Shown piece after piece: positions 2,116-64,000 of a stretch of 64,000 nt of DNA (positions within the stretch are counted from its first letter, which is position 1; the number at the start of each line of letters is the position of its first letter). Source of the stretch: Candidatus Poriferihabitaceae bacterium. Lineage in GTDB: Bacteria > Pseudomonadota > Gammaproteobacteria > Arenicellales > Poriferihabitantaceae. The stretch covers positions 2,600,612 through 2,664,611 of the forward strand of contig OZ245364.1 in the NCBI GenBank assembly GCA_965226545.1, read 5' to 3'. The notes beneath the pieces are model-generated. The model had not been told where the DNA came from. It ran no database searches and saw nothing but the letters and a program-made list of their open reading frames with translations. The translations under genes and the position numbers were made by a program.

Positions 2116-3243
2116 TTACGCACTTGCTTGCGCAGCCGTCACCGCACATAACGCGACAATGTCTTCGACTTGACAGCCGCGCGACAAATCATTCATCGGT
2201 TTTGCCAAGCCCTGCAAAATTGGCCCAATGGCGCGCACCGCACCGAGTCGTTCGGCGATTTTGTAGCCGATGTTCGCGGCTTGCAAATCGGGAAAGATGA
2301 AGATGTTGGCGGGCGCCGGGATATTGTTGTGCGGAGATTTGCGGCGCAAAATTTCCGCATCCACGGCGGCGTCAAACTGCACTTCGCAAAGCACTTCGAG
2401 TTGCGGTCGATGCCGCGCAATGATTGCCCCGGCCTCGCGCACTTTATCAACCAACGGATGATTGGCGCTGCCGGCGGTCGAAAACGACAACAACGCAACG
2501 CGCGGCGCCATCGCCAACAACGCCTTTGCGCTGTCGCCGGTGTCCATCGCGATTTGCGCCAATTGCGCGGCGTCCGGCGCAATCACCATCGCGCAATCGG
2601 CAAACAATGCCGCGCCGCGAATCGCTTGATGCGGCAACTCGTGCTGCATAATAAAAAACGACGAAATCAAGTTTGGCGCCGGCGCCGAATCGGACGGCGA
2701 GTCGGATGACGAGTCGGATGATGAGTCGGACGACGAATCCGATGCGCGTTTGCCGCCGACAATGCGCAAGGCGGCGCGCACGACATCGCCCGTGGTGTGC
2801 GCCGCACCGGCAACGCAACCGTCGGCATCGCCGGCGGCGAGCATGCATGCGCCCAACGTCAACGGCGCGCGGATTTGTTCTTGCGCATCGCGCAGGCTGA
2901 TTGGTTTGCCGCCGTTTTTTTTGTTGGATTGCGCGCGCTGAGTTGCGCGCATATAAATCTCGGCGTGGCGCGCGGCATGCGCATTGTCGTGCGGGTTGAT
3001 GACCGTACACTGCGCCGCGTCCATCGTCGCCTCCATCGACTGACCGGCATCGCGCGCCGCATCGCGCAGGGCGTTTTGCAAAGCGTCGTGCACCGCGCCG
3101 TCACCAAGCACAATAACTTCGGCGATTTGCCGCAACGCGATTTGCGCCGCGGCTTGAACGATGCGCGCATCATCGCCTTCGGGCAACACGATTTTTTTGG
3201 GATGCGCCGCGGCGCGCGCGGTGATTTGGTCGAGCGCGTTCAT
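2116..3243 (-). CDS. pta: Phosphate acetyltransferase (PTA_PTB family) with an internal Ser/Asp low-complexity insertion
   Basis: ORF 2116..3612, start chosen at MNALDQITARAAAHPKKIVLPEGDDARIVQAA (ATG 3243; alt ATG 3273). The C-terminal segment NIFIFPDLQAANIGYKIAERLGAVRAIGPILQGLAKPMNDLSRGC is typical of Pta. It carries the insertion KRASDSSSDSSSDSSSDSPSDSAPAP. Confidence 0.8.
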   Translation of the reverse strand: MNALDQITARAAAHPKKIVLPEGDDARIVQAAAQIALRQIAEVIVLGDGAVHDALQNALRDAARDAGQSMEATMDAAQCTVINPHDNAHAARHAEIYMRATQRAQSNKKNGGKPISLRDAQEQIRAPLTLGACMLAAGDADGCVAGAAHTTGDVVRAALRIVGGKRASDSSSDSSSDSSSDSPSDSAPAPNLISSFFIMQHELPHQAIRGAALFADCAMVIAPDAAQLAQIAMDTGDSAKALLAMAPRVALLSFSTAGSANHPLVDKVREAGAIIARHRPQLEVLCEVQFDAAVDAEILRRKSPHNNIPAPANIFIFPDLQAANIGYKIAERLGAVRAIGPILQGLAKPMNDLSRGCQVEDIVALCAVTAAQASA

Positions 3244-3279
3244 CGGTAAATTATAGCCGCGCGTGACGCGCATTGCGTT

Positions 3280-3293
3280 TTGATTTGCATCAA
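3280..3293. promoter_or_regulatory. FNR/DNR/NnrR-type box TTGAT-N4-ATCAA in the pta-nirK divergent spacer
   Basis: ttgatttgcatcaa is a perfect match to the TTGAT-N4-ATCAA consensus. Its centre lies about 63 nt upstream of the nirK ATG (3350). Confidence 0.6.
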
Positions 3294-3349
3294 GGAAACG
3301 GCGCGGCGGATGCGGCATGTTGAAACACTGTTCACATTTGGAGACTGCA

Positions 3350-4453
3350 ATGAAAACCAAGACGATTGTGTTTCTAATGAGTTGTTTGTTCGCGCCGGCT
3401 GCGTTGGCCGGCGACGGTTGGCAAGGCGCCGAAGTCGGCGTGCATGCCAAGTTGGACGGGCTTAAGCGCGTCAAACAAAAACTGGTTGCGCCGCCGTTTT
3501 TGCCGCAACACGAGCAAACGCGCAGCGGCAAGCCGCGCATTATTGAAGTCGAGATGGTGATTAAGGAAAAGGAAATCGAAGTCGAGCCCGGCGTTTTTAT
3601 GTGGGCGTTCACTTATCAAGACAGCGTGCCGGGGCCGTTGATTGTTGCGCACGAAGGCGATTATGTTGAGTTGACCCTGATTAATCCGTCGACCAATGTG
3701 TTGCCGCACAACATCGATTTTCACGCCGCCACCGGCGCGCTTGGCGGCGGCGGGTTGACGGTGGTGGCGCCCGGTCAACAAACGGTGTTGCGCTGGAAGG
3801 CGATTCGTCCGGGCGTGTTTATTTATCATTGCGCGCCGGGCGGGGCGATGGTGCCGTGGCATGTTGTGCATGGCATGAACGGCGCGATTATGGTGCTGCC
3901 GAAAGGCGGCTTGAAAGATCCCGACGGCAAACCGATACGATACGACCGCGCGTATTACATCGGCGAACAGGATTTTTACATTCCCAAAGACGCGCAAGGC
4001 AAATACAAACGTTATCCGACGCCGGCGGCGTCGCTCAACGACGACTTGCGCGCGATGCGCACGTTGATTCCGACGCATGTTGTGTTCGGTGAAAACACCA
4101 CGGCCTTGGTCGGCGAAAACGCGATGCGCGCCGCCGTCGGCGAAACCGTGTTGTTCATTCATTCGCAAGCCAACCGCCAATCGTATCCGCATCTCATCGG
4201 CGGACACGGCGAATATGTTTGGGAACGCGGCAATCTCGCCGACCCGCCGAGCGCGGATTTGGAGAGTTGGGTAATCGCCGCCGGCTCGGCCGGGGCGTTC
4301 ACTTATCGCTTCTTGCAGCCGGGCACTTATGCGTATTTGTCGCACAACTTGATTGAGGCGTTTTTGTTTGGCGCACTCGCCCACGTAAAAGTTTCCGGCA
4401 AGTGGAACAACGATTTGATGGAACAAGTGGTTGCACCGAGCGCGATTAAATAA
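3350..4453 (+). CDS. nirK: Copper-containing nitrite reductase
   Basis: Signal peptide [20 protein letters not shown]. Copper-ligand contexts [30 protein letters not shown] and SHNLIEA. GGAG lies 8 nt upstream of ATG 3350. Confidence 0.9.
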
Positions 4454-4471
4454 TTGCGCGGTTGACTCAAG

Positions 4472-4509
4472 AAATCGCCCGTACGGTCGACGTGCGGGCG
4501 ATTTTTTTG
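4472..4509 (+). terminator. Rho-independent terminator after nirK
   Basis: The arms atcgcccg and cgggcgat form a perfect 8-bp inverted repeat, followed by ttttttt. Confidence 0.7.
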
Positions 4510-4654
4510 TTGCGCGTTATTTGTCGATAATCCTTTATCGATGATGACTTGATGATTGTTTGATGATTGTTTGATGATAATGATTTGATGATTATTATTT
4601 ATCGATGATTGTGATGGTCATGATGACTATTTGCCGATGATGATTTGACGATGA

Positions 4655-5716
4655 TTATTTTGACGCAGCCGAGTTGGCGTCGATGCGCGAGCCGAGCATA
4701 ATCGCCATCCAGCGCGTTTCGCGATTGCTGTCCAAGGCGATTTTTAAGGCGATGGTCAGCGGCACCGACAACAACATCCCGACCGCACCGAGCACCCAAC
4801 CCCATAAAATTAACGAGACAAACACCACCAAGGTCGACAAGCCCAAACCCTTGCCCATCAGACGCGGCTCGAGCAATGCGCCGATGAACAGATTGACCGA
4901 TGCATAAGCCAGCGCGGTTAAGACGCCGGCGCCGACGCCGATTTGCACCAACGCCAACAGCACCACCGGAATCGCGGCGATGACCGAGCCGATGTTGGGG
5001 ATGAAGTTTAACAAGAACGCCGTCACCCCCCACAGCAGCGGATAATCCACGCCAATCAACCACAGCAACAGCGCAATCGTTGCGCCGGTCAACAAACTGG
5101 TGAGGGTTTTAATCGCCATGTAACGATTGACATTGCGCGCCGCATCGCGGAATCGATTGAGCGATTTTTCGGCGCTGCGCGCATCGGCGTGCGCGGCGCG
5201 CCACTTTGCCGGAATCGTCGGCGCTTCCAACAGGATGAACACCACGGTTAATAAAATTAACAAGCCGTTGGCCAACAAGGTTTGCATGCCGGCAAAAATC
5301 GTCCCGGCCAACCCGAGCAGTCGCGCCGGGTCGGCGTATTCACCGAGCAATTCACCCGGCAACGGCAAGCCGAATCGCGCGAGATGCGCCACCGCGGTTG
5401 CGCTCATCTCTTCGAGACGCGCCTGATACAACGGAAATCGCGCGACAAATTCCTGCGCCGATGAACCGATTAACGAACCGACCAACGCCACCGCCGCGCA
5501 AAACACCGACAACACGCCGAGCAATGCAAGCGGACGCGGCATGCCTTTCGCCTGCAGCCAAGCGTACGGCGAGGCGACTAAGATTGAGATAAACAACGCA
5601 AGCAACATCGACACCAACAACGGCGCGGCGATTTTCATTCCGCCGACGACAATCACAAATGCGGCCAGCGAAGTTAAGATGCGCGCCGGATGCGGTTGGT
5701 TTGACGGCGTTTTCAT
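4655..5716 (-). CDS. AI-2E family transporter (PerM/UPF0118)
   Basis: 353 aa polytopic membrane protein of the size and multi-TM layout I associate with the AI-2E family. Its start overlaps the stop of the upstream gene by 4 nt. Confidence 0.65.
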   Translation of the reverse strand: MKTPSNQPHPARILTSLAAFVIVVGGMKIAAPLLVSMLLALFISILVASPYAWLQAKGMPRPLALLGVLSVFCAAVALVGSLIGSSAQEFVARFPLYQARLEEMSATAVAHLARFGLPLPGELLGEYADPARLLGLAGTIFAGMQTLLANGLLILLTVVFILLEAPTIPAKWRAAHADARSAEKSLNRFRDAARNVNRYMAIKTLTSLLTGATIALLLWLIGVDYPLLWGVTAFLLNFIPNIGSVIAAIPVVLLALVQIGVGAGVLTALAYASVNLFIGALLEPRLMGKGLGLSTLVVFVSLILWGWVLGAVGMLLSVPLTIALKIALDSNRETRWMAIMLGSRIDANSAASK

Positions 5717-20135: not shown

Positions 20136-20649
20136 GCAGCCTCGACAAGTTGCGCCGGACGACGACAACAACGCGCCGATGATGGCGATTTTCGGCGGCG
20201 TGTTTGGGTTGCTGATGGTGTTTTTGGTGGTGGTCAATTTATATTCAGACGCCGCCCAACGCGAACGTCTCGAAAAAGGCGGCGAAGACGGCTTGTATCG
20301 CATCGAGCGGTTGGACGGCGGCAGCGGCTTTATCGTCATCACCTTCCCCGGCGAATTGCGCATCATCGAACTCGGCTTGAGCATCGCCTCGACAAAAATC
20401 TGCGCGCCCGGCGGCGCGTTTGTTAATTATGCGCGGCGCATCTATGAAGGCGACCGTGACCAATTGGTGTTTTTTATGTTGGAAGGCAGCGTGCCGACCA
20501 TGGCGATTGCGCGCGAATGTTTGCGCCAACTGTGGCCGCAAACGCCGCTGACCATCGGCTGGGTGATTGCCGACAACGAACTGCTCAAATCGGTTGCGCT
20601 CAACGACATCCCCAACTACATCCGCGAATACGTCGAGGAATCTCGATGA
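20128..20649 (+). CDS. ExbD/TolR-like bitopic membrane protein, no Asp in the TM
   Basis: Short acidic N-tail, one TM ([21 protein letters not shown]), then [13 protein letters not shown]...[21 protein letters not shown], which resembles the ExbD periplasmic domain. GTG 20128 overlaps the upstream stop; the alternative start is ATG 20179. Confidence 0.45.
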
Positions 20650-22508
20650 AACGCGAAGCCGCGCGCAATGCATTGCCGGATTTTGCCGGCGTCGCCTTGG
20701 TCGATATTCTCGCCAACGGTTTGGCGATGTTGATTATTTTAATCGCCTTGAGCATCAGTGCGCGCAGCGAACACGAACAACGCACCACCGCGCAAGTCGA
20801 GGAAGTCGAGACCATGATGAGTCGACGTTTTAGCACTTCGCTGGTGCTGAACAGCCTCGCCGCCAGCCCGCCGGCGCAACTGCATGATTACGACAACTCG
20901 CCGATAGACCAGATTCTCGACCCGCAAATCCTGCCGATTATCGAACTGCATCGCGGGTTTGTGCGCGAATATTATCGCGGCACGGTGTGGACGCGCGCCG
21001 AATTGTTGCGCGAACCGAATGCGATGGACGCTTGGCTGCTCGAGTTTGACGAACAACGCAAAAACCGTTTGCGCGTCGACATCTACGACATCACGCAATT
21101 TTATTTGGTGATGTCGATTTTGCGCGACCACGATGTGCCGACACGCCATTGGCATTTTCTCGATGGCGGACTCGGTGCACTGGCCGCCGCCAACTGCCCG
21201 CCGGGCGTCGCCGCCAAAGATTGCAAAGGCGAAGGCGAACAAGGCGCATTGGCAAAATTAGCCGGCGAAAGCGGCGGCGGGCAAGGTGATGGCGATGGCG
21301 ATGGCGATGGCGATGGCAACGGTGAAGGCGGCGGACAAGGCGAAGGTCAATGGCCGCCGCAGGATGATGCACAAGGGCAAGGCGGGCAAGGCGCCGGCGG
21401 TGCGCCGTTTCCCGGCGGTGCCGCATTTGGCGATGTCGGCGGAATGCCCGGCGGCGTGCCCGGTGGACAACCGGGCGGGCAACCCGGCGGTGCCGCCGGT
21501 GGCATACCGGGCGGCATGCCCGGCGGATTGCCGGGCGGCGAACCGATGCTCGGCGGCGGCAGTTTCCCCAACGCCCGCCCCTTGCGCGCGCAACAATTGC
21601 CGGCCGATTTAAGCGCGTTTGGCTTGCTCGGCAGCGATTTGGATGCGCCGGTGCAGTTCCGCCGCTCGACGCCGGAATCGCTGCAATCCGCACAGCCACT
21701 CGACGATTTACAAGGCGAAGCGCCAAGCATCGCCGAAGTGCTGGCGGTGTTGTTGACCTATCTCGAACGATTGCAATTGACGTTGGAATTGGGCGGCTCG
21801 CCAACTTCGTTATTGGAAAACTTCAACGCCTATCTGCGCGCCGCCTTCGCCAACCCGCCGCCATTGCGCGGCGCCTCCGCCGAAATCGTCGATGACTTGG
21901 CGGCGCAATTAACCGATGCAACCCCGTCGCTCAGCGATTGGGATAAACCGCAGGCAACCTTAACCATCCGCCATCGCGCGCCGTTAATTGACACCGCCGA
22001 CGCCGCCGATGATGACGATGACAACGCCGCCACCCCGGCGCAGTTAATCGTTGCGCCGAACCGTCGATTGCAAGCCGTCATCGTTGCCGGCGGCGCACAA
22101 CCCCCGCCGCCGGCGGCGCGCCCGACCTTGCATCTCAACGCGCATCCGGATGTGTGGCGCGGGTTGTTGGTGGCGTTGGAACCGGATTCGATTTTATTGA
22201 TGCCGCCGGTGCAGCACGGCGCGACGCCATCGAACACAACGCAATTAAAATGGCGCGCACTCGCCTACATCGCCCCGACCTTTGACGACTTCATCGTCGG
22301 CTTCGCCTATGCCGCCATCGATGCCGACGGCAATCTGCAAATCGGCGGCGACGACAATCGCGTGCGATTGGACGGCGGCGCCTTGCGCACGCCGCATCTC
22401 AGCGCAAACTTCGGCGCACGCGGCTGGCTGTGGTCGTTGTATGTTGTATTGCTGCTCGGCTTGTTCGGCGCGGTTCTCCTCACCCGCCGATTATTCGCGC
22501 GCGGTTGA
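20646..22508 (+). CDS. Giant ExbD/TolR-like protein: N-terminal TM with Asp, ExbD-like domain, Gly/Pro/Asp-rich linker, about 300-aa unknown domain, C-terminal TM
   Basis: Start at [35 protein letters not shown], with an ATGA overlap onto the upstream stop. [24 protein letters not shown] is ExbD-like. Low complexity spans aa 194-307. The C-terminal TM is [20 protein letters not shown]. Confidence 0.45.
21285..21326 (+). repeat. In-frame (GGYGAT)n hexamer repeat encoding (GD)n
   Basis: ggtgat ggcgat ggcgat ggcgat ggcgat ggcaac ggtgaa. Confidence 0.9.
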
Positions 22509-58131: not shown

Positions 58132-58505
58132 AAAGGGTGGCGGGGAGGATGGCGCGGACTATACCATTAAAAGTTAACTTGCAAAGTTAATGTTAAAAGT
58201 AAGAGTGCAAGTGAAAGTAAAAGTAAAGTTAATAATTTAAAGTTAACCATTAATAACCGAACGTTAACGAAAACATTGACGGTGATATTAATGTTGATGT
58301 TGATGAAGTGTTAACAATCATTAATAACAACACCGGCCATTGCGCGCATTAATCAAATGTTAATAATGTCGTTGATGACAATGTCGATAGACAGTGACAA
58401 TGTTAATGGCAATGTTGATGACGGCATCGATGACAACGTCGATGACAATGTTGACGACAATGTCGATGACGACAACGACGGTAACAAAACCAAATCACCG
58501 CCACA
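58132..58505. repeat. Longest AT-rich repeat spacer; includes 12-nt periodic gatgacaaygty units at 58429-58485
   Basis: gatgacaacgtc gatgacaatgtt gacgacaatgtc gatgacgacaac, preceded by gtaaaagt / gttaat word runs. Confidence 0.9.
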
Positions 58506-59688: not shown

Positions 59689-60285
59689 TTATGCCTTGCC
59701 CGCCGGCGCACTTAAATATTGCAACGCACTTTTAATTAATTCCTCGCGCCCGTTGGCGTCGCCGCGCACCGCGCGCAAGGCGCGGTTGATGGCGGCGGCG
59801 TTATAACCCAATGCAAGCAAGGCCGCGGCCGCATCGTGTTCGGGGGCGTCCGCCGCGGGCGGGTGGGTCGAGTCGACGGCGAAATCGGCCATTCGGTCGC
59901 GCAGTTGAAAGATGATTTGCTCGGCGGTTTTTGCGCCGATGCCGGGCACGCGCGTCAACGCGCCGACATCGCCTCGATGAATGCAGCCGGCGAATTCATC
60001 ATTGCGCAAGGTCGATAAAATCGCCAATGCCACGCGCGGCCCAACGCCGCTGACGCGCAACAACACGCGAAACAATTCGCGCTGCGTACGTTCGGTGAAG
60101 CCGAACAACAAATGCGCATCGTCGCGCACCACGCAATGCACAAACAACGCGACCTGCGCGTCGCCATCCGGCAATTCATAAAATGCGGTCATCGGCGCCT
60201 CCAATTCATAACCGACGCCGCCGACATCCAACAACAACATCGGCGGTTTTTTGTCGAGCACCCGACCGCGCAAAAATCCAATCAT
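59689..60285 (-). CDS. ruvA: Holliday junction DNA-binding protein RuvA
   Basis: Start at MIGFLRGRVLDKKPPMLLLDVGGVGYELEAPM. HhH segment LTRVPGIGAKTAEQI. Confidence 0.95.
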   Translation of the reverse strand: MIGFLRGRVLDKKPPMLLLDVGGVGYELEAPMTAFYELPDGDAQVALFVHCVVRDDAHLLFGFTERTQRELFRVLLRVSGVGPRVALAILSTLRNDEFAGCIHRGDVGALTRVPGIGAKTAEQIIFQLRDRMADFAVDSTHPPAADAPEHDAAAALLALGYNAAAINRALRAVRGDANGREELIKSALQYLSAPAGKA

Positions 60286-60328
60286 TTGATTCTCGAAGTT
60301 TTGATTCGCATAAGCGACACGGTAAAAA

Positions 60329-60385
60329 GTATGGTGAGTATGGTGAGTACGGTAAGCACTGTAATCACAATAACAACAGTAACAG
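60329..60385. repeat. 9-nt periodic repeat (gtatggtga-like) upstream of ruvA
   Basis: gtatggtga gtatggtga gtacggtaa gcactgtaa tcacaataa caacagtaa. Confidence 0.85.
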
Positions 60386-60559
60386 TAGACGATGCAGTAC
60401 ATCATGTCGCAAACAATTTATTAACTAATAACTAAAACTAAACTTAAAACAAACGCACGAAACAATGCATTAATAAATCGATACATTAATACGTTAATAC
60501 ATTAATGCATTAATACATCGACGCACCGCTACACGACATCGATGGCAACGCCATGCATC

Positions 60560-61800: not shown

Positions 61801-61814
61801 GCGGTTACTTCACG

Positions 61815-62636
61815 TTAATTGGTTGCGCCATTTTCGATGGCTTCTTTGGCAAAACGTTGGAACATTTTATCCAACTGTTCCGGGCTTAACGCATTAAGCA
61901 TAATGCGCCCGCCTTGTCGGTTTATCCGCTTCATAAATTCGCGGAAGTTGTCTCGCTTGTAAATATCAAGGTTTTGTTTTTCGTAAAGCGCTTTGCCAAG
62001 CACGCGAATGACGCCGTTAAAAATTTCCGCACTTGCGCTTGCCGAAGTACGCTCGAGCAGGTTGGCGCGTACATCGGAATTTTTCAGCAAAATGGTTAGG
62101 GTTTTTTCAAGGTCGTAGTCCTTCTTGCAACGAGACGCCGCGTACCCCATCCACCAAAGGCGCGCAACGGCATTATTGCGGATTAATCCGCGTGCATCGC
62201 GCGCAAAATAATGCGCTTGCACATGCTTAATTTGCCGTTTTTTAATTTCAACCTCTTTTTCGTTTTCGGTTTTTTCTTTTTGACCTTTTTTGGATTTCCC
62301 GGCAGTTTTAGGGAAATTGCTCCAACGTGTGCGCGTGTACTTGTTGGCAGCCACATGCGTGGCATAAACCCAAATGCGCTCATCCGCCGCTTGTTGCGGC
62401 GAAAGGCATTTTAATGCGGTGTAAACGGCGATGATGTTTTCTTTGTCGTGCTCTTCGTCGCCTTTGTCATTCAGCGCTTCAAAGCAATCCAAGTTTGCCG
62501 TCAACTTCATCTCGTTGTAATCGGTAAACACGACGGGGGGCGCGTCTTGCTCGTCCCGATACCAATCGAGATTTTCCACAATCGCGCTTTTTAAGTCATC
62601 GACCTGACTCAACGTAAAAAAACGAATTCGATTCAT
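61815..62636 (-). CDS. Hypothetical protein (273 aa), low-GC operon, Lys/Glu-rich internal insert
   Basis: Clean ORF with ordinary amino-acid composition, unlike the Arg/Ala-rich shadow ORFs elsewhere. ATGA overlap with the upstream gene. I recognise no family. Segments include ERIWVYATHV and NAVARLWWMGY. Confidence 0.6.
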   Translation of the reverse strand: MNRIRFFTLSQVDDLKSAIVENLDWYRDEQDAPPVVFTDYNEMKLTANLDCFEALNDKGDEEHDKENIIAVYTALKCLSPQQAADERIWVYATHVAANKYTRTRWSNFPKTAGKSKKGQKEKTENEKEVEIKKRQIKHVQAHYFARDARGLIRNNAVARLWWMGYAASRCKKDYDLEKTLTILLKNSDVRANLLERTSASASAEIFNGVIRVLGKALYEKQNLDIYKRDNFREFMKRINRQGGRIMLNALSPEQLDKMFQRFAKEAIENGATN

Positions 62637-63454
62637 TTTATCCTCTCAAGGTGCGTCAACATCGTACCAAGCGGGTTACGCATAAGTTTTTGCGTAATCA
62701 TAAACGGGTCGATGTTGGATAAATCTTTATCCTCGAAGTGATGCGCAAACACGCGATACCAACGTTTGCCGGATTCCGCATCGTCGATTTTCATTTGTTG
62801 CAGTACTTCGATAATCGCCGTCAAGTAAACCAACATTGCGATTGGTTTGTAATTCGAGTTTCCGCGCATCGCCTCAAATTTGGATTTGTCGCTGGGATTC
62901 ATTTGAATCTTTACTTTGTCACCGCTTGTATCCACCGAAAATTGTCCGGCGACAACGGTGTGGTTTGCGACCAGGTCAATAACCGAATGAATCGGTTTGG
63001 CTAATTCGGTGCTCCAGTAATACGAAAACGCGCCGTCAGCGGCCAGCACATCGCCGGGTTGCAAATCAAACGAAGCATTTTCGCCGAATTCACCGTTGAA
63101 ATTTTTGCTTGCGTGATTTTTAACTTCCGCAGTGCAGACAACAAATGCATTCACATCCACATCGGCAAAAAGCGCGCCTTTGTCCAGCGAAATTTTTCCG
63201 CTTTCTTCTTGCGTTTTAAACACGCACCGAAAAAGCGTCATTGGGCAATGAATTTCCAGCGCGTACGCCGCTTTATTGTCGCGGATAAGTTCACGAATGC
63301 TTTCTTCGTTAACGGTGAATTTGAACGCTATCGACGGAATGTTGTCTTTGCTTATCACAAAGTCACGAGTTAATTGAAACGCCCGATTCACATAATCGTC
63401 GGCTTGATTCCACAGCACTGGGTGCGGAAACGTCTTATTTGCCAACAGTTTCAT
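62633..63454 (-). CDS. Hypothetical protein (273 aa), low-GC operon, possible PD-(D/E)xK-like motif
   Basis: Clean ORF with ATGA overlaps at both ends. AYALEIHC ... FADVDVNAFVVCTAEVK gives an E ... D ... ExK spacing. No family recognised. Confidence 0.6.
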   Translation of the reverse strand: MKLLANKTFPHPVLWNQADDYVNRAFQLTRDFVISKDNIPSIAFKFTVNEESIRELIRDNKAAYALEIHCPMTLFRCVFKTQEESGKISLDKGALFADVDVNAFVVCTAEVKNHASKNFNGEFGENASFDLQPGDVLAADGAFSYYWSTELAKPIHSVIDLVANHTVVAGQFSVDTSGDKVKIQMNPSDKSKFEAMRGNSNYKPIAMLVYLTAIIEVLQQMKIDDAESGKRWYRVFAHHFEDKDLSNIDPFMITQKLMRNPLGTMLTHLERIK

Positions 63455-64000
63455 CGTTTTTTACCCTCTGCATCTTGGTCAACGATTTCGTAAGCCCGCA
63501 CAACAATCGAGTCGCTTACGGGTTTTTCGAGAGAAACTTGCAGGGCAACGCGCGGAATTGTGCCGTCACCCAATTTTTCGACCTGCAAGGCAACACTTTT
63601 ACCTTTAACCTCCGCTTTGTTGCCGGCGAAATTCGCATCGACGATGCCGAGCACGCCATCCACTTTGCCGTCATCGCCTCTCACCTCAAGCAAGACGTAC
63701 ATTTTTCCAGATTTCTCCGCGGTAAAGAAAACGGTTTTCTTTTCACCGCTCGTGGTGTCCGCAACAACGCGAACGTTGTTTATTACAACGGCTTTTCTTG
63801 GTGTTTTGGTGCCTTCGGTGCCTTCCTCGGTTTTCACACCACCTCCGCCACCGCCAACACCACCACTATTGTGGTCACTGTCGCCTTCAACATCACCCGA
63901 ATCCCCGTCGTCATCGTCAATCACGAGGGCTGGGATTGACCGTCTTCTTTGCGGTTTTAACGTGCAGTCTGAAATCCCCTCGATATCCGGCTCATCACCA
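63451..64000 (-). CDS. C-terminal part of a larger hypothetical protein whose 5' end lies beyond the window
   Basis: The frame stays open upstream of the ORF-track GTG (63924) to the window edge (...GDEPDIEGISDCTLKPQRRRSIPALVIDDDD...). An acidic/Gly-rich linker (DDDDGDSGDVEGDSDHNSGGVGGGGGG) is followed by an approximately 110-aa beta-rich domain. Confidence 0.55.
   Translation of the reverse strand, partial: GDEPDIEGISDCTLKPQRRRSIPALVIDDDDGDSGDVEGDSDHNSGGVGGGGGGVKTEEGTEGTKTPRKAVVINNVRVVADTTSGEKKTVFFTAEKSGKMYVLLEVRGDDGKVDGVLGIVDANFAGNKAEVKGKSVALQVEKLGDGTIPRVALQVSLEKPVSDSIVVRAYEIVDQDAEGKKR

Follow-up and report, generated by a model that had tools for sequence, protein, structure and literature searches.

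The 64,000-nucleotide (nt) stretch of contig OZ245364.1 considered here, which we refer to in its full length as the window, comes from a Candidatus Poriferihabitaceae bacterium and ends in a block of three consecutive minus-strand genes (61815-64000) lying directly against yebC and ruvC. We name these genes A, B and C in the order in which they would be transcribed; their coordinates, and those of the features associated with them, are given in Table 1. The block is examined here as part of a candidate anti-phage operon, together with its counterparts in related genomes.

The three-gene block and its family

The three genes are tightly coupled, and the two ATGA stop/start overlaps described in an earlier note, which was made from the sequence of this DNA, are both present on the coding strand. 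The junction between C and yebC is identical in a close relative (locus L101), and a scan of its 14 nt revealed no promoter-like or terminator-like site. The content of guanine plus cytosine (GC) in the block is 47.6%, compared with a mean of 56.8% for the rest of the window, and no region of the same size is as poor in GC (0/299 other 2186-nt windows fall below 52%). At third codon positions the GC content (GC3) is 0.50-0.53 in the block and 0.68-0.74 in yebC, ruvC, ruvA, ruvB, tolQ and tolR. Lys makes up 7.7-9.5% of residues, against 2-4% in the products of these neighbors, and Asn 6-7% in B and C, against 0.6-4%.

The low GC reported in the earlier note is therefore borne out, but its range of 30-50% is not: most of the block lies at 43-52%, and the patch at 62221-62280, which it had put at about 28% and which we measure at 28.3%, belongs to one short insertion in C. 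This insertion contains an array detected by Tandem Repeats Finder (62237-62298) and, among 11 aligned sequences, is common only to the C proteins of the window and of L101 (P0027). Because GC3 is about 0.5, the codons are not predominantly A/T-ending as had been stated; their usage is balanced and only shifted relative to the neighboring genes. Lys and Asn are indeed enriched, as had been claimed, but Glu is not. Finally, the observation that no integrase or transposase is visible holds, in that none adjoins the block within the window.

Scanning A, B and C with PADLOC returned matches to the PDC-M33 profiles only. Protein C matches PDC-M33C at E=2.2e-36 (residues 3-266 on profile positions 2-242 of 247), protein B matches PDC-M33B at E=2e-50 (residues 5-272 on positions 4-282 of 289), and the fragment of A matches PDC-M33A at E=2.4e-5 over profile positions 496-625 of 627; the full-length A proteins of relatives match the same profile at 1e-126 to 1e-135. 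The order A, B, C on a shared strand is the one that PDC-M33 requires. Protein C additionally matches Pfam PF19866 (DUF6339) at 1.1e-36, scoring 126.7 bits against a gathering threshold of 23.2. Membership of B, C and the A fragment in this candidate defence family is, in our assessment, close to certain, and the earlier reading of a possible defence-type island is supported, in that all three genes match a candidate anti-phage system. The same scan gave no match to BREX, DISARM, Druantia or Shedu; a link to the first three was considered and set aside, there being no match to their signature proteins (PglZ and BrxC; DrmA and DrmB; DruE).

PDC-M33 is one of 145 candidates nominated through their embedding in BREX, DISARM or type I restriction-modification loci, and is listed as cassette CAS_00129 with the number 98, apparently a RefSeq v209 count (Payne et al., bioRxiv 10.1101/2024.01.29.577857). 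A literature search found no paper on PDC-M33 or DUF6339. The genes in the window are thus an additional member of a catalogued, uncharacterised candidate family, for which protection against phage is a candidate function; since the family is known, current tools would already label them.

The clade to which the window genes belong is rare, with 25 clusters at 90% identity for B, and 54 for C, among 5.8 billion. The B family as a whole is large (2613 clusters at 50% identity with E<=1e-3), and 3/2613 of its representatives score in the range of the close clade. An exact look-up of the B product returned no record, and neither a homologue search with the truncated A fragment nor a scan of GTDB genomes with B as a single protein returned anything, though a profile scan did find relatives. 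An exact 50-mer of B had no match in JGI metagenomes, and a profile scan of IMG/VR viral contigs gave no relatives.

The four-gene operon in relatives and its proteins

In 13/13 distinct related loci, a gene for a C5 DNA methyltransferase, which we call M, lies directly upstream of A on the same strand. The order M-A-B-C is found at L001, L002, L003, L004 (same place as L008), L005, L006, L007, L009, L095, L097, L101, L102 and L103, and a variant locus, L096, retains M, B and C. The earlier count of at least three genes therefore stands, with M added to it by every related locus. M is a Pfam DNA_methylase protein of ~330-350 aa (amino acids) and aligns full length, end to end, with M.HhaI at 2e-29. 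In most of the related loci M overlaps A by 4 nt and A overlaps B by 4 to 20 nt. M proteins are 53-70% identical among loci, and 65-70% identical in the core set, which is above the values for A, B and C. The named hosts are Nitrospirales, Pseudomonadales, unclassified Gammaproteobacteria and the sponge-symbiont genus Ca. Spongiihabitans.

The best explanation of the block in the window is that it represents the downstream three-quarters of a horizontally transferred M-A-B-C operon. By the layout of L101, base 64000 should be followed directly by the remaining 5' two-thirds of A and the M gene, with aspS beyond them. At L095 (5109-9643), M-A-B-C is placed between the genes for the 30 kDa, 49 kDa and 2Fe-2S subunits of Complex I upstream and an RnfD/NqrB-like gene downstream. 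The cassette and its neighbors there are all on one strand, which suggests read-through from a housekeeping operon, and the same may hold with yebC in the window.

The full-length A proteins of relatives are ~620-650 aa long and carry, in the part that is absent from the window fragment, the motifs REIIQNSLDA, SDxxTTGL and GGSFGIGK. In order and spacing they correspond to the N, G1 and G2 boxes that characterise GHKL ATPases, for which we took as criteria an N box of the form ExxxNxxD, a G1 box resembling DxGxG and a G2 box of the form GxxGxG, in that order. In an 11-member alignment reaching down to 23% identity, R36, E37, Q40, D44, D113, T116, G118, G149, G152 and G154 are invariant, and the ATP-binding motifs, invariant or nearly so, are the most conserved positions of the family even with plasmid homologues of 23-28% identity included. 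N378, L381, E385 and H389 of the middle domain are invariant in the same alignment. The E. coli proteins MutL and HtpG were used as GHKL comparators; the window itself was also considered as a source, and 0/10 of its large open reading frames (ORFs) scanned encode a GHKL protein. In hhalign the N box of A falls on the N box of MutL, and its G1-G2 region on that of HtpG. Full-length A has no Pfam, NCBIfam or PHROG family above threshold, and a profile search of PDB sequences with A returned no GHKL protein. Because the motifs fit but the statistical support is weak, we describe A as a probable, divergent GHKL-type (Bergerat-fold) ATPase. The portion encoded in the window consists of a Gly/Asp-rich linker and a C-terminal beta-rich domain. 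It matches no Pfam family, and a comparison with the complete A protein of L001 gives 43.6% identity over 117 aa.

Protein B has no Pfam, NCBIfam or PHROG family. Its AlphaFold2 model, with a predicted local distance difference test score (pLDDT) of 81, shows an N-terminal beta-sandwich followed by a helical bundle, and a Foldseek comparison with the PDB gave weak fibronectin type III/immunoglobulin-like (FN3/Ig-like) matches only, with a template modeling (TM) score of ~0.25. Among 142 distant representatives, the conserved residues are P10, P12, V13, L14 and D20, which form an N-terminal PxPVL...D peptide, together with C70, T73, G134, A138 and W232. No conserved acidic or basic catalytic set is found across these representatives, which suggests an adaptor or sensor, and B is probably one of these rather than an enzyme. 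A PD-(D/E)xK nuclease was considered for B and rejected: although the close clade keeps E67, E122 and D135 without exception, their conservation does not extend to the wider family.

Protein C is modeled by AlphaFold2 as all-alpha with high confidence (pLDDT 93, predicted TM score (pTM) 0.89), and its fold has no match in the PDB (best E 2.3) or among the viral structure predictions of BFVD (best E 1.5). The residues invariant in 54 homologues are W89, Y100, R104, W105, H142, R149, N155, R159 and W162, a set rich in Arg, Trp, His and Tyr; C may be a subunit that binds DNA or acts as an effector. When PDB sequences were searched with profiles of A, B and C, low-complexity or chance matches alone came up; those of C to ferritin (E>=0.01 over ~35 residues) were dismissed as chance helix matches.

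More distant A-B-C cassettes are carried on plasmids of Arthrobacter, Planococcus, Deinococcus, Lactococcus and Ligilactobacillus, where the neighbors include genes of Shedu, ABC-three-component, AbiG, AlwI restriction-modification and type I restriction-modification systems, and one lies beside the integrase of a temperate phage of [Clostridium] innocuum (NatCom_9291). A Dcm gene is found within ~3.5 kb upstream, with Vsr nearby, in 3/5 distinct distant plasmid contexts. In the Arthrobacter, Planococcus and Deinococcus cassettes, the gene immediately upstream of A encodes a conserved protein of ~76 aa (32-52% identical) that has no assigned family. This small protein may be a fourth component or a regulator that falls outside the PADLOC model.

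The aspS-yebC locus and natural variants

The closest relative, L101, provides a direct comparison at the same site. Its YebC, RuvC, RuvA, RuvB, TolQ and TolR are 96-100% identical to those of the window, whereas its cassette proteins are 62% (C), 50% (B) and 38% (A tail) identical. The L101 layout is aspS, a type II restriction-modification pair, M, A, B, C, yebC and ruvC, with all four cassette genes intact. The additional pair, an N4/N6 methylase and a CfrBI-family endonuclease between aspS and M (2584-4946, 48% GC), makes the aspS-yebC site in L101 a two-system island. When identity between the two loci is followed in sliding 60-nt segments along a global alignment, it remains at 93-100% from yebC to ~61942, drops to 77-88% up to ~62182, and is mostly 50-65% further upstream. 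Because similarity switches inside C against a background that is 96-100% identical, the comparison indicates that a divergent allele has replaced the cassette at a variable locus, with the predicted crossover inside the 3' end of C.

The cassette is also found upstream of yebC in L103, whose host proteins are ~78% identical to those of the window, and in Ca. Spongiihabitans, where they are ~69% identical. B is 48-51% identical to the B of the window whether the host proteins are ~97%, ~78% or ~69% identical. The foreign composition proposed in the earlier note extends beyond the window, as evidenced by a cassette GC content 5-16 points below the flanks both there and in eight related loci, one of them a variant locus. 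The cassette is missing from all 80 other proteobacterial yebC loci, and 15 of the 65 loci with >=3 kb upstream represent the empty site, aspS being no more than 152 nt from yebC. The idea that the cassette is a conserved neighbor of yebC in Proteobacteria was discarded on these grounds. The comparison of presence and absence that the note had proposed thus yields both an absence from these loci and a divergent allele in a nearly identical genome. The note had also named what would speak against its reading, namely conservation across the family with native composition or a match to a housekeeping family, and neither was found. Four related lineages do have the cassette beside yebC, but its composition is non-native, alleles are swapped, copies decay and no housekeeping family is matched.

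Several relatives carry altered versions of the operon. In L103 (702-2951, P0080), residues 1 to ~472 of A are fused in frame directly to B, with loss of the Gly-rich linker and C-terminal domain of A; this fusion rests on one short contig and may be an assembly artefact. In L096 (5061-8756), M is followed by an HNH_2 endonuclease (277 aa), an 84-aa remnant of the C-terminal domain of A, and then B and C, so that the GHKL core of A has given way to a nuclease gene while B and C are intact; it is the sole variant with HNH_2. Taken together, the fusion in L103 and the replacement in L096 suggest that the C-terminal domain of A may tether A to B and that the core of A would be an exchangeable engine or effector module. 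In L003 (8659-11329), insertion sequence (IS) elements lie between A and B and inside C, and in L004 (10707-11509) a frameshift splits C. These two loci come from one sample, and one of the two contigs matches a Ca. Spongiihabitans chromosome.

Elsewhere in the window, the spacers between tolQ and ruvB (58132-58505) and between ruvA and ruvC (60292-60559) have a GC content of 36-44% and many short tandem repeats, among them a 12-nt unit, GATGACAACATC, in ~5 copies (58417-58478) and an 8-nt unit, AATACATT, in ~7 copies (60464-60518). Because the longest ruvA ORF (59689-60405) runs into these tandem repeats, the true start of ruvA is probably the methionine of MIGFLRG near 60285, ~40 codons further downstream. 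A 663-aa ORF on the plus strand (20517-22508) matches no Pfam family at E<=1e-5, and nine other large ORFs that were scanned are ordinary, including PBP1, a TonB-dependent receptor, thiamine pyrophosphate (TPP) enzymes, argininosuccinate lyase, CobQ and others.

Table 1. Coordinates of the A-B-C block, of features within it, and of the small upstream gene in distant plasmid cassettes
Feature	Position	Strand	Remarks
Junction, C stop codon to yebC ATG	61801-61814	-	14 nt; cassette abuts yebC-ruvC on the same strand
Gene C	61815-62636	-	273 aa, complete; DUF6339 / PDC-M33C
Transition zone in 3' part of C	61943-62182	-	interpreted as recombination breakpoint
Lys/Glu-rich insertion in C	62221-62300	-	lineage-specific; the 28% GC patch; 32-nt repeat in two copies
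ATGA stop/start overlap, B-C	62633-62636	-	read directly in the sequence
Gene B	62633-63454	-	273 aa, complete; PDC-M33B
ATGA stop/start overlap, A-B	63451-63454	-	read directly in the sequence
Gene A, 3' end	63451-64000	-	last 182 codons; frame open to the window edge
Gene for ~76-aa protein	L012 4870-5097; L098 3877-4110; L099 3864-4094		same three contexts as Dcm

Proposed mode of action, rival explanations and known systems

Because a methyltransferase precedes A-B-C in all 13 related loci, action in the manner of restriction-modification is probable; that M-A-B-C is an ATP-dependent, restriction-modification-like defence system is a proposal that we rank first among the explanations considered and to which we give about equal weight for and against. 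In such a system, M would methylate a short cytosine-containing site in the host and thereby mark self. Protein A, probably a dimer that works as an ATP-driven clamp or switch like MutL, MORC and paraMORC proteins, would assemble with B and C. Protein B would serve as a non-catalytic adaptor or sensor that docks via the C-terminal domain of A, and, among the proteins encoded in the window, the strongest candidate for binding or cleaving DNA would be the Arg/Trp/His-rich, all-alpha protein C. Driven by the ATPase of A, the resulting complex would act on incoming DNA that does not carry the methyl mark. More tentatively, the operon may represent a new class of ATP-dependent restriction-modification system, in which a GHKL ATPase and two proteins of previously unseen fold constitute the restriction complex, a non-canonical active site cleaves or otherwise inactivates DNA and the C-terminal domain of A is the tether to B. 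Such an active site would most plausibly reside in the DUF6339 protein or in the N-L-E-H motif of the middle domain of A.

A number of observations weigh against the restriction-modification proposal. Neither M nor the ATPase part of A is seen within the window. No GHKL-family profile is significantly matched by A in Pfam, in the profile search of PDB sequences or in hhalign: its sole recurring Pfam match, HATPase_c_3 (PF13589), reaches 11-16 bits against a cutoff of 25 in 3/7 proteins, and the hhalign comparisons with MutL and HtpG give E ~0.04 and a probability of ~1%. Neither family searches (Pfam, NCBIfam, PHROGs) nor PDB sequence searches nor fold searches recognised a nuclease or other effector domain in A, B or C. 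The cassette in Ca. Spongiihabitans shows decay in the form of IS insertions and a frameshifted C, and the PDC systems were themselves presented as untested candidates (Payne et al., bioRxiv 10.1101/2024.01.29.577857). Finally, the A-B-C cassettes of the Lactococcus and Ligilactobacillus plasmids and of phage NatCom_9291 have no adjacent cytosine methyltransferase; because such cassettes occur, A-B-C does not generally depend on a dedicated partner methylase.

The lack of a detectable nuclease and the existence of these methylase-free cassettes make a self-contained, methylation-independent module the chief rival, though a rather doubtful one. Here A-B-C would, for example, sense a phage protein or DNA structure and halt the cell or the phage, and M would be an accessory, whether as an orphan methylase that hitch-hikes, as protection from other restriction systems or as a regulator. 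Besides the cassettes without a neighboring Dcm, this explanation draws on the PADLOC definition of PDC-M33, which comprises three genes only, on the sensor- or adaptor-like character of B with its absence of conserved catalytic residues, and on the ~76-aa gene that, in three of the plasmid versions, stands immediately before A where M would otherwise be. However, M is present in 13/13 loci of the clade, usually with the 4-nt overlap with A, and is the most conserved gene of the core loci. It is kept even where an HNH nuclease gene replaces the core of A, and Dcm recurs near distant plasmid versions.

Two further explanations are less likely than a methylation-independent module. The copy in the window could be an inactive remnant, with B and C intact by chance or recent acquisition and A or M disrupted beyond the edge. 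The upstream part does lie outside the window, and relatives show decay in the form of the frameshifted C of L004, the IS insertions of L003, the deletion fusion of A and B in L103 and the loss of the A core in L096. Yet B and C are full length with nearly whole PADLOC profile coverage, the A fragment runs through 182 codons without a stop, the ATGA couplings are intact, and so are all four genes of L101, all of which renders a remnant improbable. Least credible is a role outside defence, in DNA repair or maintenance, where a MutL-like A would join B and C in processing T:G mismatches or other lesions arising from methylation by M. The MutL/MORC-type motifs of A, the absence of a Vsr gene from the gene lists of the clade's M-A-B-C loci, though Dcm normally travels with the Vsr repair nuclease, and the position directly upstream of Holliday-junction genes in four related lineages, which fits the placement beside yebC and ruvCAB, are outweighed by unrelated insertion sites in other hosts, absence from the 80 proteobacterial yebC loci, foreign composition, swapping between near-identical genomes and decay that are unexpected for a repair pathway, and distant versions in defence islands and on mobile elements, some without Dcm.

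The proposed restriction-modification-like system can be set against those already described. PDC-M33 has the same three families in the same order; it is defined as three genes, whereas the clade of the window always adds a C5 methyltransferase as a fourth, translationally coupled gene. GHKL ATPases have been predicted as restriction-modification components with Dcm and Vsr, a prediction that the proposal fits, and the MORC/paraMORC systems likewise pair a GHKL-type ATPase, the predicted driver of a restriction complex, with a DNA cytosine methylase, as here, where Vsr accompanies distant plasmid versions (Iyer, Abhiman and Aravind 2008, PMC2292703). In contrast to those systems, A is accompanied neither by a superfamily II helicase nor by a recognisable domain of the restriction-fold, HNH or TIR type, and the sections of that article that were consulted do not name B or C (DUF6339) as partners. 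A also differs from the MORC/paraMORC group in scoring below the Pfam HATPase_c_3 threshold. VcSduA of Vibrio cholerae (Shedu type I-D / paraMORC3), a GHKL-nuclease fusion shown by experiment to act against phage, in which the glutamate of the N-terminal GHKL ATPase is needed for defence, provides a functional precedent for A as an ATP-driven controller of an effector (PMC12137116). VcSduA is, however, a single protein with a fused PD-(D/E)xK nuclease (DUF4263), whereas the presumed effector here is encoded separately.

DISARM class 2 (DrmMII), Druantia type II (DruM) and BREX likewise couple a methyltransferase to several proteins that do not look like nucleases, and M too gives a score with the DrmMII and DruM profiles, which is true of any C5 methylase. 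However, A, B and C match no Drm, Dru or Brx/Pgl profile, and no helicase, PLD, PglZ or Lon-like component is present. The type II pair M.HhaI / R.HhaI also has a single-domain C5 methyltransferase of the M.HhaI type, and in L096 M is paired directly with an HNH_2 endonuclease; otherwise the partner of M is not one small endonuclease but three proteins totaling ~1170 aa, including an ATPase. What the present analysis adds to the catalogued family is a methyltransferase that is obligatory in one clade, a probable GHKL engine, two partners whose confident models match no solved structure, and allele replacement at aspS-yebC.

These observations give PDC-M33 a more concrete shape, and the methyltransferase in one clade suggests that self and foreign DNA are told apart by methylation. 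The two near-identical genomes, with cassette alleles that are ~50% identical at one site, constitute a natural experiment on the turnover of defence alleles, and at least one related genome belongs to a named genus of sponge symbionts. If the proposal is true, it would add to the known restriction systems one that is driven by a GHKL ATPase and has an effector of a new type, and DUF6339 would gain a function.

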